Shown: in pieces, positions 7,838 through 16,124 of the stretch
Position numbering within the stretch: position 1 is the first letter of the stretch
Layout of the letters: each line of letters starts with the position of its first letter
Source of the DNA: a virus
Lineage: Duplodnaviria; Heunggongvirae; Uroviricota; Caudoviricetes
IMG/VR virus record: IMGVR_UViG_2718217897_000003
DNA: 16,591 nt
Strand: one strand, 5' to 3'
Position numbers and translations under genes: made by a program
The notes under the pieces: generated by a model
Told to the model about the DNA's origin: nothing
What the model saw: the letters and a program-made list of their open reading frames with translations, nothing else
Database searches by the model: none

Positions 7838-9061
7838 ATGAGCATGGTTGAATGGATAAGCCACGAGAAAAAAGATAGCCTGATACTATTTGTACATGGA
7901 TTAAATGGTGGTTTGGAAACATGGAACTTTAATAAAGAAATTTCATTTCCAAAACTATTAGCAGAAGATGAAGATATTAGCAACGTATTTGATATTGCAT
8001 GTTTCAATTATTTTACTAAATTCACACAAACGTATGCTAAAACGTCAGGATTCTTGGCTCGTATTTTCTTTAAGAAAAATAAGTTAGAGAGAAATTTACC
8101 AACTGATGAAATAGCTGAGTTATTGTATACTGAGATTAGAGTAACACTAAGTGATTACTCTCGAATTATAATAATCGCCCATAGTATGGGGGGGTTAATA
8201 TCAAAAAATCTAATTCTAAAAAAAGTTGAGCATGAGGAACAATCTAATATAATTGGATTCATTTCGTTAGCAGTCCCTCACTTTGGTGCTAAATTAGCGA
8301 ATATAACTTCAATGGTATCTTCAAATGCTCAGTTAGTAGATCTTGGATTGTTAAGTGAAGCGACTGATACATTGAATAGGCGCTGGATAAATTGTAGCAA
8401 AAAACTTCCTATCACTAGATATGTTTATGGATCTCATGACACTATAGTCGATAAAAAAAGCGCATTACCGATGGATAGTGAACGACATAACTCAATTGCA
8501 GTTAATGAAGGGCATAGCTCAATTTGCAAGCCCGAAAATAGCTCGTCTACAGTGTTTGTTGCGGTAAAGCAATTTATTCAGCAGATAAATTTAGAAGCAC
8601 CCAAGAAGATTTGCGTTGAGCGTTTTTCTGATGATAAACAATATGATAATGAGTATTTCGTCTTAAAAATGATTGTCGCAGATATACATCAGGATATCGC
8701 TCTGCATGCAAAGGAATATTATTATAATGCTGAGCTTGCGAGAAATATTTTTACGAGTGATTACGATAGAAAACAACTTGGTCATTTGTATTCTAAAATA
8801 AGGGAGATTTACCAGGAAGAGTATGAGCAATACATTGCAAATTCAATTTCCCCAGATAAATTTATTGCTGCTGTTCATAGACGAATAACCCAGGAGGATA
8901 AGTCGTCGTTAGATTCTCTTATAAAAAGTTTGGAAACGATACATAAGAAAGGAATGTTGCATCAACTGGCTAACAAAAATGACAGGGATATTGTCTGGTC
9001 ATCTGAAACCAGCGTAGAAACTTTGGAGCAATTACGGCGAGGTAATCATGAAGAAAAATAA
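7838..9061 (+). CDS. Cargo protein 1: lipase-like alpha/beta serine hydrolase with C-terminal helical domain (407 aa), candidate defense effector
   Basis: AT-rich ORF. Oxyanion-hole-like HGLNGG (res 20-25), nucleophile elbow AHSMGG (Ser116, the pentapeptide of Bacillus lipase A), candidate acid Asp201 (YGSHDTIVD) and His226 (NEGHSSI), in the canonical order. The C-terminal 150 residues or so are helical and K/E-rich. The stop overlaps the next gene by 14 nt. Confidence 0.75.
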   Translation: MSMVEWISHEKKDSLILFVHGLNGGLETWNFNKEISFPKLLAEDEDISNVFDIACFNYFTKFTQTYAKTSGFLARIFFKKNKLERNLPTDEIAELLYTEIRVTLSDYSRIIIIAHSMGGLISKNLILKKVEHEEQSNIIGFISLAVPHFGAKLANITSMVSSNAQLVDLGLLSEATDTLNRRWINCSKKLPITRYVYGSHDTIVDKKSALPMDSERHNSIAVNEGHSSICKPENSSSTVFVAVKQFIQQINLEAPKKICVERFSDDKQYDNEYFVLKMIVADIHQDIALHAKEYYYNAELARNIFTSDYDRKQLGHLYSKIREIYQEEYEQYIANSISPDKFIAAVHRRITQEDKSSLDSLIKSLETIHKKGMLHQLANKNDRDIVWSSETSVETLEQLRRGNHEEK

Positions 9062-9560
9062 CTTGCCGTATATACCTCTTGATGAAGAGTATAGTTTGAA
9101 TTTTGCTATGCTTGCCATTGCTATATCTATATTATCTCATAGCAAAAAAGGAGTGTTGTCATTAGATATTAATAAAATACAAATTTTTATGTATCTGATA
9201 AAAAATCCATCAAAAATTGATTGTGCTCTTACAGTTTCGGGGAAAAAGCCTGCTTGTGTCGAGTCCCAGTTAACTTATACAATAAAGAGTTTTTCATCAA
9301 ATGTAGATATCTTATTCGACAATTCCAAAGTGAAATATCTTATAAAAATTATGTCATTGCGGGGATTGCTCTCAGCTGAGAAAAAAAATAATGAGAGTGT
9401 TAAATTATTTTTATCTGAAAAAGGTAAGGAATTTGCTAGCTCATTGACTGATGGATATTTTAAAGAAATAAAACGACTAGCCGAAGCATTGTTACCGCTA
9501 CAAGCATTGCCTACCTCTAAGTTAAACTCTGTTATAAACAAAGTCTTCAAGGAGAAATGA
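9048..9560 (+). CDS. Cargo protein 2: small 170-aa protein of unknown function, possible adaptor or kleisin-like middle component
   Basis: ATG at 9048 lies inside the 3' end of gene 1, and ATGA overlaps gene 3 at 9557-9560, indicating translational coupling in one operon. AT-rich; no motif recognised by eye. Confidence 0.7.
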   Translation: MKKNNLPYIPLDEEYSLNFAMLAIAISILSHSKKGVLSLDINKIQIFMYLIKNPSKIDCALTVSGKKPACVESQLTYTIKSFSSNVDILFDNSKVKYLIKIMSLRGLLSAEKKNNESVKLFLSEKGKEFASSLTDGYFKEIKRLAEALLPLQALPTSKLNSVINKVFKEK

Positions 9561-11527
9561 TGAAATCATATCTCAATATCAATAGTTTGATTCTTGTTGG
9601 CGTTCGTAAAAACTACGTCACTACTTTTTATAAAGGTCTCAATGTTATCTACGGAGACTCTGACACAGGTAAGTCAAGTATTCTGGAGTTTATTAATTAT
9701 CTTTTAGGTGCTAGTTCTATAGATTTAGCAGATGAAATAAAAACATCAGTAAACTATGCTGCTCTTGAAGTAGTGATCAATGATACTGTATTCACAATCG
9801 TAAGAGATATCTATGATCATAAAAAATCAATAGAAGTTTATCGTTGTAAGTTTGATGATTTACATAAACACTTTCCGAAAAAATACGCCCCTAATTATAG
9901 CCCCTTATCAAATGTTGATGGCGTTTTTTCGGAGTTTTTACTTGATAGTCTTAATTTTCCAAAAATTGAAATTAAGGTGTCTCCTTCTAAAGCACATTCA
10001 CAGATGCGCAGGTTAAGCTTTAGAAATATATATAAATTTGTTTATGTAAGTCAGGATGATATTGGTAGTAAATCATTCTTACGATTGGAGGATTGGTCCC
10101 GTTACGCATTTACGAAAGAAGTTTTTAAATACATGTTCAATGTGTTGGATGAAAGCATCGCCAGACTCCAAGGTGAAATATCTGCAAAAAGTAGTTTAGT
10201 AACGGAACTAAATAAGAAGTATCAGATAATATCTGAATTTCTTCGCGATACAGACTATGAAACAATTGAATCAATTGATGATGAGATTAATAGGATAGAT
10301 CTTATTTTAGAAGAACTTGTTGCAGGTTTGTCTGCTCTCGATAAAAATATGAAAGCGGATTCCATGCAGTATACAGAATTGAAAGATGCCCACAATTTTA
10401 TTTCGCTTAAATACAAGGAGTGCATATTAAATATTAGCACGCTTGAGGATAAGATTGATAAATATTCGCGGTTAAAAAATGACTATGATAATGATATTGA
10501 AAAACTCAAAGCGATTAAAACAGCAAATTCTCGCATTGGTGTATTGGATAAGGAAGTATTTTCCTGTCCGATCTGTGATAGCCACATTAAAATAGATGAT
10601 TCCGATTTTCCATTTGAAATTTCATCAGAAAAAGATCTTAATGAAGAGTTGAATTCACTTAGTCGACGTAGACGAAATATTAATGACATGATCTCAGAAA
10701 TGTCATTTAAATTAAAAAAAGAATCTGGTTATAAAAAAGAATTAGATGAACAACTTGACGAGTTGAGAGAGTTAATTGACGAAGAAAGCCAGTCAATGAT
10801 TACACCATTCTTGACTCAGAGAGATTTTTATATTAAAGAGATATCAAAAAACGAGAAGGTTAGGGAGCAGTTAGTAAAAGATTTGAAGGTTAGAAACCAG
10901 CAAGAGGAACTGCTTGAAAAGCATCAGGTACTGATAAAAGATATTGAAACATTAACTGAACGCTTGGATGCGTTAAAGAAAAACGCACCTAGTATGGAAG
11001 GCATTTTACAAGGTTTAGGTGATAGATTTAGTCAGTATTTGAAGGGTATTAATATCAAAAACAGAACGGGGATAAAAATCTCTGAAAGATATTACACCCC
11101 TGTTATAAGAGGAAAGGAATATTTTAAAATAACGTCCGGAGGTTTGAGAACTATTTCTTCTATTGGGTATCTTTTGTCTATTCTTGATTATGCAATAGAC
11201 CATAATGTTAACCATCCTTTACTTTTGATATTTGATACGGTTGGTAAATATTTAGGGAAACAGACCAAGGAAAAATACTCAAAAGAAACTCTTGCAGTCG
11301 AGGATGACCTTGAGGGGATGTCAGACCCGATGAAGTATCAAAATATTTATGAGCAACTATTGAATACAGTTCAAAAAGCAGAAAGAAAAAATGTTCCGTG
11401 CCAGATTATATTAGTTGATAATGATTTGCCTAATTCGTTTTCTACTGGTGAACTTTCGAATATTATCGCTCATTATAGCTCGGTTGGTGAGGATGGTTTG
11501 CCTTTAGGTTTAATTGATGACCTTTAA
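9557..11527 (+). CDS. Cargo protein 3: SMC/Rad50/SbcC-like ABC ATPase with coiled coil and CxxC hook (656 aa)
   Basis: N-terminal Walker A GDSDTGKSS (K39), Q-loop-like VSQDD (Q166), a charged heptad-rich segment of about 350 residues with a single CPIC (C337/C340) near its middle, signature-like TSGG (526-529) and Walker B-like LLLIFD (555-560). Confidence 0.8.
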   Translation: MMKSYLNINSLILVGVRKNYVTTFYKGLNVIYGDSDTGKSSILEFINYLLGASSIDLADEIKTSVNYAALEVVINDTVFTIVRDIYDHKKSIEVYRCKFDDLHKHFPKKYAPNYSPLSNVDGVFSEFLLDSLNFPKIEIKVSPSKAHSQMRRLSFRNIYKFVYVSQDDIGSKSFLRLEDWSRYAFTKEVFKYMFNVLDESIARLQGEISAKSSLVTELNKKYQIISEFLRDTDYETIESIDDEINRIDLILEELVAGLSALDKNMKADSMQYTELKDAHNFISLKYKECILNISTLEDKIDKYSRLKNDYDNDIEKLKAIKTANSRIGVLDKEVFSCPICDSHIKIDDSDFPFEISSEKDLNEELNSLSRRRRNINDMISEMSFKLKKESGYKKELDEQLDELRELIDEESQSMITPFLTQRDFYIKEISKNEKVREQLVKDLKVRNQQEELLEKHQVLIKDIETLTERLDALKKNAPSMEGILQGLGDRFSQYLKGINIKNRTGIKISERYYTPVIRGKEYFKITSGGLRTISSIGYLLSILDYAIDHNVNHPLLLIFDTVGKYLGKQTKEKYSKETLAVEDDLEGMSDPMKYQNIYEQLLNTVQKAERKNVPCQIILVDNDLPNSFSTGELSNIIAHYSSVGEDGLPLGLIDDL

Positions 11528-11842: not shown

Positions 11843-12814
11843 TCAGCCGTTGTCAGTGTCCAGTGAGTAGTTTTTAAAGCGGATGACCTCCTGACCGAGC
11901 CAGCCGTTTATCTCACGGATCCTGTCCTGTAACGGGATAAGCTCATTGCGGACAAAGACCTTTGCCACTTTCTCAATATCACCCAGCGACCCGACGTTCT
12001 CCGGCTTGCCGCCCATCAACTGAAAGGGGATGCGGTGCGCGTCCAGCAGGTCTGCGGCACTGGCTTTTTTGATATTAAAAAAATCGTCCTTCGTCGCCAC
12101 TTCACTGAGCGGGATAATTTTAATGCCGTCGGCTTTTCCCTGTGGGGCATAGAGAAACAGGTTTTTAAAGTTGTTGCGGCCTTTCGACTTCACCATGTTT
12201 TCGCGAAGCATTTCGATATCGTTGCGATCCTGCACGGCATCAGTGACGTACATGATGTATCCGGCATGTGCGCCGTTTTCGTAATACTTGCGGCGGAACA
12301 GCGTGGCCGACTCATTCAGCCAGGCAGAGTTAAGGGCGCTGAGATATTCCGGCAGGCCGTACAGCTCCTGATTAATATCGGGCTCCAGCAGGTGAAACAC
12401 GGAACCGGGCGCGAAGGCTGTCGGTTCGTTGAAGGACGGCACCCACCAGTAAACATCCTCCTCCACGCCACGGCGGGTATATTTTGCCGGTGAGGTTTCC
12501 AGTCTGATGACCTTACCGGTGGTGCTGTAACGCTTTTCCAGAAACGCATTACCGAACACCAGAAAATCCAGCACAAAGCGGCTGAAATCCTGCTGGGAAA
12601 GCCACGGGTGCGGGATAAACGTTGAAGCCAGAATATTACGTTTGACGTAAATCGGTGAGCTGTGATGCACGGCAGCACGCAGACTTTTTGCCAGACCGGT
12701 AAAGCTGACCGGTGGCTCATACCATCTGCCGTTACTGATGCATTCGACGTAATCCAGAATGTCACGGCGGTCGAGTACCGGCACTGGCTCACCATGCTGA
12801 AAAATCAGCTTCAT
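11843..12814 (-). CDS. Q: Portal protein Q (323 aa as encoded here; 5' end abuts a deletion junction, possibly N-terminally truncated)
   Basis: Minus-strand ORF with host-like GC content in the expected place and orientation next to cos. From memory P2 Q is about 344 aa, so about 20 codons may be missing. Sequence directly upstream of its ATG is lysB-derived rather than gene P. Confidence 0.8.
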   Translation of the reverse strand: MKLIFQHGEPVPVLDRRDILDYVECISNGRWYEPPVSFTGLAKSLRAAVHHSSPIYVKRNILASTFIPHPWLSQQDFSRFVLDFLVFGNAFLEKRYSTTGKVIRLETSPAKYTRRGVEEDVYWWVPSFNEPTAFAPGSVFHLLEPDINQELYGLPEYLSALNSAWLNESATLFRRKYYENGAHAGYIMYVTDAVQDRNDIEMLRENMVKSKGRNNFKNLFLYAPQGKADGIKIIPLSEVATKDDFFNIKKASAADLLDAHRIPFQLMGGKPENVGSLGDIEKVAKVFVRNELIPLQDRIREINGWLGQEVIRFKNYSLDTDNG

Positions 12815-13650: not shown

Positions 13651-14095
13651 GTTTAAGCGTTTTGAAGACCGGCTGACCGGGCTGATTGAATCGCTGTCAC
13701 CGTCAGGGCGTCGGCGACTGAGCGCCGAACTGGCGAAACGTCTGCGTCAGAGTCAGCAGCGTCGGGTGATGGCACAGAAAGCCCCGGACGGCACCCCCTA
13801 CGCGCCACGTCAGCAGCAGAGCGCCAGAAAAAAGACCGGTCGCGTTAAGCGAAAAATGTTTGCGAAACTTATTACCAGTCGTTTTTTGCATATCCGCGCC
13901 AGCCCGGAACAGGCATCAATGGAATTTTACGGCGGGAAGTCGCCGAAAATCGCCAGTGTGCATCAGTTCGGTCTGTCGGAAGAAACCCGGAAAGACGGTA
14001 AGAAAATTGATTATCCGGCGCGTCCTCTGCTCGGCTTTACCGGTGAGGATGTGCAGATGATTGAAGAGATTATCCTGGCTCACCTTGAGCGTTAG
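13643..14095 (+). CDS. S: Tail completion protein S (150 aa)
   Basis: MNEFKRFEDRLTGLIESLSPSGRRRLSAELAKRLRQSQQRRV... matches P2 gpS as I recall it; start overlaps the R stop. Confidence 0.9.
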   Translation: MNEFKRFEDRLTGLIESLSPSGRRRLSAELAKRLRQSQQRRVMAQKAPDGTPYAPRQQQSARKKTGRVKRKMFAKLITSRFLHIRASPEQASMEFYGGKSPKIASVHQFGLSEETRKDGKKIDYPARPLLGFTGEDVQMIEEIILAHLER

Positions 14096-14125
14096 TTTTA
14101 TCCAGGCAGAGGCTGATGCGCAATT

Positions 14126-14160
14126 AAACATTGAGCGGCCATGCTGGTCGCTCAATGTTT
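14126..14160. terminator. Perfect 12-bp-stem hairpin between convergent S and the membrane-protein gene; candidate bidirectional terminator
   Basis: AAACATTGAGCG-(11 nt loop)-CGCTCAATGTTT, 30 nt after the S stop and just before the minus-strand gene's stop. Only a short U-run (the stem's own TTT). Confidence 0.45.
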
Positions 14161-14166
14161 AGAGGC

Positions 14167-14952
14167 TTATGAGTGATTTTTATTTGATGCTTTGTATTCT
14201 ACAACCTTCTTATTGGCGTAAAGGAATTTTGTATATGACAGGAATATAACCAGACCTGAAATGAAATAGATGAGGGATATTATTAATAATGCTTTTTTTT
14301 GGCTGTTATTATCTTTAATTTCCTGACTTAACCATTCCGAGTCCTCCTCGTTTAGCTGTAAGAGCTTATTGCAGGCGATCTCAGGAAGTGTGTCTTTTAT
14401 AAATATGTTTCGTAGCCTCTTGCAATCGGCAAGGCTATAAGTTTTATTGAATTCAACTGTTTTATTGTTGAAGGATAAAAGAACTTTGTCACTATAAACA
14501 TAGTACATCATATTTTTATATGGTATGCCTATGGCATCTCTTACTATAGCGGATTGTTTGTTGTGTATATAACATGCGAAGAGAATATAAATAATGCTGG
14601 ACAGAATTACAATTATTGTTTTAATTATGTGTGGTGGTTTTGTTATGTCACCCCAGAAGCGAGTAAGAAAAAAATACGATGTTTTTAGTTTTCCATCAAT
14701 CAGCCCCTGCTGTATCATTCTCACATCTTCGATGCCTGATACATTGATTCCGTTAATTATTTTAAATAGTTGAATGTCGCGCCATTTTTTGTCGAGCATT
14801 TTTAACTTTCTGTCTGAATACTCAAAATTGAAATGATGTGCAATAAACCTCATAAGATTACTTTTACCAAAGGTAATAAATGTTAATGCTATTAATAAAA
14901 ATAGATACAAAGAGATAAACCACCACGCATTAGTCACATTATCACTGAACAT
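14167..14952 (-). CDS. AT-rich cargo gene: 261-aa integral membrane protein (about 3 predicted TM helices), unknown function, in the S-V slot (P2 orf30 position)
   Basis: ATG complement at 14950-14952 with GAGGAG 8 nt upstream on the minus strand. Hydrophobic segments WWFISLYLFLLIALTFITF, IIVILSSIIYILFACYI and ALLIISLIYFISGLVIFLSY. Opposite strand to the flanking tail genes. Confidence 0.8.
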   Translation of the reverse strand: MFSDNVTNAWWFISLYLFLLIALTFITFGKSNLMRFIAHHFNFEYSDRKLKMLDKKWRDIQLFKIINGINVSGIEDVRMIQQGLIDGKLKTSYFFLTRFWGDITKPPHIIKTIIVILSSIIYILFACYIHNKQSAIVRDAIGIPYKNMMYYVYSDKVLLSFNNKTVEFNKTYSLADCKRLRNIFIKDTLPEIACNKLLQLNEEDSEWLSQEIKDNNSQKKALLIISLIYFISGLVIFLSYTKFLYANKKVVEYKASNKNHS

Positions 14953-15035
14953 TACGCTCTCCTCGAATGTTGTATGGTCGTTCTACAAATGAATCCAGAT
15001 AGCATAACTTTTATATATTGTGCAATCTCACACGC

Positions 15036-15671
15036 ATGAACACTCTCGCAAATATTCAGGAACTCGCGCGCGCACTGCGCAACATGATTCGTACCGGCCT
15101 TGTCGTCGAAACCAACCTTAAAGCCGGTCGCTGCCGTGTGCAGACCGGTGGCATGTGCACTGACTGGCTTCAGTGGCTGACCCATCGTGCCGGACGTTCG
15201 CGCACATGGTGGGCACCTTCCGTGGGGGAACAGGTGCTGATTCTGGCTGTGGGCGGTGAACTCGACACGGCGTTCGTTCTGCCGGGGATTTATTCCGGCG
15301 ATAACCCCGCGCCGTCTGCGTCGGCGGATGCCCTGCATATCCGTTTCCCTGACGGGGCGGTGATTGAGTATGAACCCGAAACCAGTGCACTCACGGTAAG
15401 CGGAATTAAAACGGCCAGCGTGACGGCTTCTGATTCTGTTACTGCCACGGTGCCGGTGGTCATGGTGAAAGCATCAACCCGCGTCACCCTGGACACACCG
15501 GAGGTGGTTTGCACCAACAGGCTGATTACCGGCACGCTGGAAGTGCAGAAGGGCGGGACGATGCGCGGCAACATTGAACACACCGGCGGTGAACTCTCAT
15601 CAAACGGTAAGGTACTGCATACCCATAAACACCCCGGCGACAGCGGCGGCACAACCGGGAGCCCTCTATGA
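15036..15671 (+). CDS. V: Baseplate spike protein V (211 aa)
   Basis: MNTLANIQELARALRNMIRTGLVVETNLKAGRCRVQTGG... matches P2 gpV as I recall it. The ORF-track start at 15018 is a TTG extension; ATG at 15036. Confidence 0.92.
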   Translation: MNTLANIQELARALRNMIRTGLVVETNLKAGRCRVQTGGMCTDWLQWLTHRAGRSRTWWAPSVGEQVLILAVGGELDTAFVLPGIYSGDNPAPSASADALHIRFPDGAVIEYEPETSALTVSGIKTASVTASDSVTATVPVVMVKASTRVTLDTPEVVCTNRLITGTLEVQKGGTMRGNIEHTGGELSSNGKVLHTHKHPGDSGGTTGSPL

Positions 15672-16015
15672 CAGCGCGTTATCTCGGAATGAATTGCAGT
15701 GATGGCCTGACTGTCACTGACCTTGAGCATATCAGCCAGAGTATCGGCGATATCCTGCGCACACCGGTCGGCTCGCGGGTGATGCGTCGTGATTACGGCT
15801 CGTTGCTGGCGTCAATGATTGACCAGCCGCAGACCCCGGCGCTTGAGTTGCAGATTAAGGTCGCCTGTTACATGGCGGTGCTGAAATGGGAACCCCGCGT
15901 CACCCTGTCATCCGTCACCACTGAGCGCAGTTTTGACGGGCGAATGACGGTCACCTTAACCGGCCAGCACAACGACACCGGCCAGCCACTTTCGTTAACC
16001 ATCCCTGTGAGTTGA
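15668..16015 (+). CDS. W: Baseplate wedge protein W (gp25-like, 115 aa)
   Basis: MTARYLGMNCSDGLTVTDLEHISQSIGDILRTPVGSRVMRRDYGS... matches P2 gpW as I recall it; ATGA overlap with the V stop. Confidence 0.92.
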   Translation: MTARYLGMNCSDGLTVTDLEHISQSIGDILRTPVGSRVMRRDYGSLLASMIDQPQTPALELQIKVACYMAVLKWEPRVTLSSVTTERSFDGRMTVTLTGQHNDTGQPLSLTIPVS

Positions 16016-16019
16016 AACC

Positions 16020-16124
16020 ATGCCGATTATCGACCTGAACCAGCTACCCGCACCGGATGTGGTCGAGGAGCTGGACTTTGAAACCATTCTCGCCGAACGC
16101 AAGGCGACACTGATTTCCCTTTAC
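16020..16124 (+). pseudogene. J: Baseplate protein J, 5' fragment (first 35 codons only)
   Basis: MPIIDLNQLPAPDVVEELDFETILAERKATLISLY matches the gpJ N-terminus as I recall it. The frame then reads TPKTRNRKSRR and stops, and downstream sequence belongs to another gene in another frame. Confidence 0.75.

Follow-up and report, generated by a model that had tools for sequence, protein, structure and literature searches.

The dyad upstream of gene V in a P2-like prophage is most probably the known activator site of the late promoter pV

The window, meaning the whole 16,591-nucleotide stretch of IMG/VR record IMGVR_UViG_2718217897_000003 that was analysed here, is a P2-like (Peduovirus) prophage, and the region of interest within it is an 83-bp divergent spacer (14953-15035) between a phage structural gene and a cargo gene. 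The structural gene, V (15036-15671, + strand), encodes the baseplate spike and is the first gene of the pV operon; its product matches Pfam families Phage_spike (4e-28) and Phage_base_V (3e-20) and is identical (100%) to V of Peduovirus P24A7b. The cargo gene on the other side of the spacer (14167-14952, - strand) encodes a protein of 261 amino acids and aligns to orf30 of phage P2 (9439-10224), which is annotated as 'nonessential'. This orf30 homologue has a GC content of 32%, compared to 55-59% in its neighbours, and its product contains three hydrophobic segments at approximately residues 9-29, 108-130 and 220-242. The protein matches phrog_2407, a family of unknown function, with an E-value of 1.8e-143 and with the profile covering residues 1-261; searches of Pfam at the cut-off used and of PADLOC returned no match for it, and the papers on P2 hotspots mention neither orf30 nor pV. 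Its start at 14952, which is also the annotated start in P2, is preceded by a good GAGGAG Shine-Dalgarno sequence.

Within the spacer, the dyad TTGTA-N9-TACAA occupies positions 14970-14988, with the left arm TTGTA at 14970-14974, the spacer tggtcgttc at 14975-14983 and the right arm TACAA at 14984-14988. Both the sequence and the coordinates agree with the preliminary description of this DNA, which had reported the dyad in the 83-bp divergent region. Inside the dyad lies TGT-N11-ACA (14971-14987), 49-65 bp 5′ of the V ATG at 15036, and owing to the symmetry of the dyad both strands read TGT-N11-ACA. Relative to the V ATG, the TGT is found at -65 to -63, the ACA at -51 to -49 and the dyad centre at -57, and the same positions are found in P2 pV. 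As a bare pattern, the dyad is not above chance and carries no statistical weight alone. The window contains two copies of TGT-N11-ACA (4.0 ± 2.1 in shuffled sequences), one copy of TGT-N12-ACA (3.7 expected) and a single 5+5 dyad with at most one mismatch (0.66 expected, with 104 of 200 shuffles reaching one). Since these counts are at or below those of the shuffles, the case for a function has to be carried by homology and position.

A megablast search with positions 14100-15700 matched phage P2 along the full query (100%) at 93.7% identity; the same segment is 99.9% identical to Peduovirus P24A7b. Positions 14940-15050 aligned to P2 without gaps, and the 83-bp spacer was identical to that of P24A7b and matched P2 at 79 of its 83 bases, making it orthologous to the P2 intergenic region between S/orf30 and V. 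In the P2 record AF063097, bases 10239-10266 are annotated as "activator binding site; activation of pV promoter" and correspond to window positions 14967-14994 (+ strand), the predicted binding region of pV for an activator of the Ogr/delta family. Base 10308 of the same record, the first base of the V coding sequence, is annotated as "transcription start site for V operon" and corresponds to window position 15036. The preliminary description had tentatively suggested an Ogr-type site of the P2 V late promoter, a suggestion borne out by the 79/83 alignment and by the location of the dyad inside the annotated P2 site. It had also named two findings that would speak against the idea, a region that does not align to the P2 V promoter and a start site incompatible with the dyad; the comparison with the P2 late promoters that it proposed shows an alignment to pV, and with the start annotated at the first base of V the TGT lies at -65 to -63. 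P2 has four late promoters, and homology and position point to the dyad as the upstream activator site of one of them, pV, a reading whose probability we put at roughly 0.93. The site is already known, as it is annotated in P2, and the result is a textbook re-identification with no novelty.

The four P2 late promoters were lined up on their annotated starts in AF063097. The pO site reads TGT-N12-CCA with the TGT at -64 to -62, the pF site also reads TGT-N12-CCA with the TGT at -66 to -64, and pP uses the pO site in reverse, TGG-N12-ACA, such that one site serves the divergent pP and pO promoters with each start 55.5 bp from the site centre. In pV the sequence is TGT-N11-ACA, the same in P2 and in the window, with the TGT beginning at -65. 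The published consensus for the four Ogr-dependent promoters PP, PO, PV and PF is TGT-N12-ACA (PMC3931495); in P2 itself the right arm of this consensus is loosely matched, while the left arm is constant in position. The partial dyad TGT...ACA expected of a P2 late promoter, centred about 55 bp 5′ of the start, is present in the window, with a spacer of N11 rather than N12 both here and in P2 pV. The one-base departure from the consensus that had been pointed out in the preliminary description is real, but it is shared with P2 pV and is therefore no anomaly. By sequence, the orf30-type pV site is a divergent version of the late-promoter site, with TTGTAT or TTGTCT in place of TTGTGYCA.

A position weight matrix was built from ten other late-promoter sites, leaving out the pV site itself. 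With this matrix, the window pV site ranked 25th of 33,134 positions and the P2 pV site ranked 111th of 67,138 positions in P2; the matrix does find pO and pF in P2, but both of these are members of the training set. Given such ranks, the matrix is unusable as a detector for pV of the orf30 type and was rejected for that use.

Sequences upstream of V were collected from 80 IMG/VR loci and seven more distant GenBank phages, and these fell into many unrelated classes. Compared pairwise without gaps, nine class representatives were 9-47% identical in the distal part, and the orf30-type sequence showed 15-40% (distal) and 22-36% (core) ungapped identity to the other classes. TTGT starts at -66 or -65 from the V ATG in 9/9 of these dissimilar upstream classes; the chance of a TTGT at -66/-65 is about 0.009 for one independent sequence. 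The more distant relatives ENT90 and SEN5, in which TTGT is missing from the expected place, were not counted, as they probably have a different activator specificity. A Shine-Dalgarno sequence before V was found in none of the nine classes, and the ACA arm varied among them, at N10, N11, N12 or N15, or was absent. Most classes read GTTGTG(C/T)CA at the left arm, and in the orf30 type the corresponding sequence is TGTTGTATGG in the window and TGTTGTCTGG in P2. Conservation within the orf30 type was assessed with 16 distinct sequences over the 84 columns from -84 to -1, which comprise the spacer and the first base of orf30. Only four of the 84 columns were variable (-72, -62, -57 and -3), whereas variable columns made up 20% of the orf30 coding sequence (binomial P = 5e-5 against the spacer block) and 9.7% of V (P = 0.08). 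The arms TTGT and ACAA of the dyad were invariant in all 16 sequences, and the only variation within the dyad, at -62 and -57, fell in its spacer.

The predicted transcription start of the V operon (15036, + strand), transferred from AF063097 base 10308, is the A of the V ATG itself, and the sequence leading up to this ATG (...caatctcacacgcATG) contains no GGAG-like Shine-Dalgarno sequence. A passage in PMC4633059, citing Christie & Calendar 1985, names P2 as one of a small number of leaderless cases in E. coli. Taken together, the AF063097 annotation and this citation predict that the V mRNA is leaderless, and V would lack a Shine-Dalgarno sequence because its message is leaderless. The lack of a Shine-Dalgarno sequence and the constant spacing of TTGT and ATG in the nine upstream classes lend this predicted start indirect support. 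The missing Shine-Dalgarno sequence, which had been given as a reason for caution in the first account of this DNA, fits such a message. Gene callers and readers should accordingly not take the absence of a ribosome-binding site before V as an anomaly.

The core promoter elements upstream of V are poor. A putative weak -10-like hexamer, CAATCT, is found at 15023-15028 (-13 to -8, + strand) and has no accompanying -35 element; a hexamer of the form CAnnnT recurs at -13/-12 in other upstream classes (CATCCT, CATTAT and CATGCT, as read from the printed sequences). A consensus scan found no sigma-70 promoter upstream of V, and the best hit of a relaxed scan matched 8/12 positions with a 19-bp spacer. 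The region upstream of V thus combines the lack of a -35 element with a poor -10, as expected of a late promoter that depends on its activator. A better -10-like hexamer, TATATT at 15014-15019, would predict a start near 15026, which is discordant with 15036. P2 late promoters depend on the binding of Ogr or delta and on the C-terminal domain of the RNA polymerase alpha subunit. The Ogr dependence of these promoters is summarised in PMC3931495. If the window promoter behaves in the same way, Ogr, a small zinc-finger activator, or the delta protein of a P4-like satellite would bind the partial dyad late in the lytic cycle, with the centre of the bound dyad about 56-57 bp 5′ of the start point. 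The bound activator would contact the C-terminal domain of the alpha subunit and in this way bring host sigma-70 RNA polymerase to a core promoter with no -35 element and only a weak -10, and transcription would begin on the A of the V ATG to give a leaderless V-W-J... message. For this locus, we infer Ogr binding, the contact with the alpha subunit and the exact start point from what is known of P2.

Pattern counts at or below chance are what would be expected if the dyad were a chance palindrome, or it might act as a nucleic-acid hairpin, for example in the leader RNA of orf30, and in either case have no protein-binding role. The folding results do not favour a hairpin, as the dyad has a predicted energy of -1 kcal/mol (z -0.35), RNA transcribed leftward from the spacer is predicted to be no more stably folded than its shuffles (z -0.25) and no Rfam family matches anywhere in the window. 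A chance palindrome cannot explain the identity with an annotated P2 site or the fixed position of TTGT in unrelated sequences, and we regard this whole explanation as extremely improbable. Hardly more probable is that the dyad is bidirectional, in the manner of the pP/pO site, with the orf30 homologue co-activated by Ogr as a late gene. Such an arrangement has a precedent in P2, where the two starts each lie 55.5 bp from the centre of a single site; it is compatible with TGT-N11-ACA being present on both strands, and a search in and around the spacer gave no convincing sigma-70 promoter for orf30, the best candidate again matching 8/12 positions with a 19-bp spacer. The geometry is against it. 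Counting 55.5-57 bp leftward from the dyad centre (14979-14979.5) gives a start at about 14922-14924, 28-30 nt into orf30, whose coding sequence begins at 14952. That beginning is backed by the GAGGAG sequence, by the P2 annotation and by the PHROG profile over residues 1-261, and use of the next in-frame ATG, at codon 34, would drop the first membrane segment. By this geometry, the dyad would not have two starts about 55 bp from its centre with each upstream of its own gene. The preliminary description had noted that the cargo gene starts only 83 bp away and that its expression could be tied to late-gene control; the distance is correct, and the proposed tie does not hold in its simple shared-site form, as the leftward start would be inside the coding sequence.

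A different route to late control of the cargo gene would be an element of its own. The sequence TTGTGCAA (TGT-N12-GCA; 15018-15036, with the TGT from 15019) overlaps the pV core and is treated here as a lead, not as an established part of the locus. It could represent a late-type activator element belonging to orf30, which would make the spacer a pair of interleaved divergent late promoters. When the window was scanned with a left-half-site matrix built from other late promoters, TATTGTGCAA ranked 4th of 33,164 positions, and the true pV site ranked 47th, so that the second element is closer to the family half-site TTGTGYCA than pV itself. The centre of this second element, 15027.5, is 55.5 bp from 14972, and a transcript starting there would have a 20-nt leader containing GAGGAG, in the orientation of pP; a further TTGT in the stretch from the pV site to the ATG occurs only in 3/9 classes, which are those with a leftward cargo gene adjoining V. 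Against this, the idea is post hoc, having been formed after the hit was seen, and the second TTGT is found at -18, -41 and -36 in the three classes, giving inconsistent leaders of about +20, -2 and +53 nt. Cassettes with leftward cargo have AT-rich sequence in which an additional TTGT should turn up fairly frequently, and its presence may be a coincidence. In addition, the -10 for a start at 14972 would be TAGAAC, without the key final T, and polymerases at the interleaved pV and orf30 promoters would exclude each other. We consider a separate orf30 element very unlikely, although less so than a shared dyad. If it were true, Ogr would link cargo expression with the switch to late transcription, either in a positive sense or by competition between the two promoters.

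The interval from the S stop codon, which ends at 14095, to the V ATG (14096-15035) can be described as a swappable cargo cassette with its own copy of pV. Phages without orf30 match the window only from 15036 on, and the right boundary of homology lies exactly at the V ATG, which is also the predicted leaderless +1. Relatives fill the S-V interval in at least six unrelated ways (at loci including L010, L013, L015, L045 and L082), among them 66 bp with no gene, rightward open reading frames of 508 or 251 aa, and leftward open reading frames of 261, 247 or 363 aa. Each cassette carries a non-homologous pV of its own with the same geometry and TTGT at -66/-65, a reading that is better supported than that of a second element for orf30. 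S-V cassettes with a rebuilt promoter may be of interest for phage cargo hotspots, as an observation and not as a new system. For the promoter itself, the finding adds little beyond what is known of P2 pV, and shows that the TGT-N12-ACA consensus is loose on its right arm.

The left end of the cassette contains a hairpin between the convergent S and orf30 genes (14124-14162; -30.5 kcal/mol, z -6.2), which is the equivalent of P2 9397-9433, annotated as 'putative rho-independent terminator for O operon'. It probably terminates transcription both ways and closes the O operon. This hairpin is perfect and long, and it was missed by a simple terminator scan. A separate arrangement was seen in two orf30-less loci, L010 and L084, over positions -69 to -14, where the TTGTG half-site follows directly on TAG, the stop codon of S (cgtTAGTTGTGCC). 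The same loci have a GC-rich inverted repeat, CCGCCGG-tatgac-CCGGCGG, that separates the activator site from the -10 region and is possibly an O-operon terminator embedded in the pV promoter.

Compared to P2, the window carries two large internal deletions. The junction at 12789-12794 connects the portal gene Q (P2 1138) with the middle of lysB (P2 8061), and that at 16122-16124 connects the start of J (P2 11396) with the end of D (P2 23485). The genes missing as a result include those for the capsid, terminase, lysis, tail fibre, sheath and tube, together with pP, pO and pF, leaving pV as the sole late promoter in the prophage. Sequences of 30 bases across both junctions were absent from IMG/VR, and none of the complete E. 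coli genomes spans either deletion junction. The two-deletion structure could be that of a rare defective prophage or an artefact of assembly or stitching, and with these deletions pV might never be used productively in this prophage. The right end of the window is the D stop codon (equivalent to P2 23954), and P2 ogr (24036-24254) is located just beyond this point, so that ogr is outside the window.

Two other parts of the window were noted. Positions 7838-11527, between A and cos/Q at the tin/old cargo hotspot of P2, hold three rightward open reading frames (407, 170 and 656 aa). The RefSeq names of matching genes in E. coli O157 and other genomes are 'ABC-three component system protein', 'ABC-three component system middle component 4' and 'AAA family ATPase/SMC family protein', and the three open reading frames are a candidate defence system. 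Positions 1-1781 do not match P2, homology to which begins at 1782, corresponding to the attP core (P2 24356), and a leftward open reading frame of 355 aa runs off the start of the window. This segment is presumably host flank.

The closest known counterpart of the dyad is the pV promoter of P2: TGT-N11-ACA is the same and lies equally far from the V ATG, orf30 is the divergent neighbour in both, and neither has a Shine-Dalgarno sequence. The two spacers differ by four substitutions, at 14964, 14974, 14979 and 15033, and those at 14974 and 14979 fall within the 28-bp activator region (14967-14994); the change from C to A at 14974 extends the perfect arms from 4 to 5 bp. The sequence described here also sits in a deleted, presumably defective, prophage. 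The other P2 late promoters, pO/pP and pF, and the sites of the Ogr/delta/B/Pag activators have the same TTGT left arm at the same distance to the start and likewise have no -35 element, and their activator family is the same. These sites usually have GYCA after TTGT, whereas the sequence is ATGG here and CTGG in P2 pV, and the ACA arm here is one base nearer than in the N12 consensus.

Phages without orf30, including L-413C, pro483 and most of the IMG/VR relatives, encode V proteins that are 95-100% identical, and their pV promoters resemble the one described here in having TTGT at -66, a CAnnnT -10-like hexamer and no Shine-Dalgarno sequence. Their upstream sequence, in contrast, is unrelated and GC-rich, with ungapped identities of 15% (distal) and 31% (core), and it is only 66 bp long, with the S stop codon adjoining the TTGTG half-site. 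For the predicted leaderless message, counterparts from mobile elements of E. coli are lambda cI transcribed from PRM and tetR of Tn1721, both of which start on the A of the start codon and have no ribosome-binding site. Lambda cI and Tn1721 tetR are repressor genes, whereas the leaderless message of V would come from a late structural operon that is strongly expressed and positively activated.
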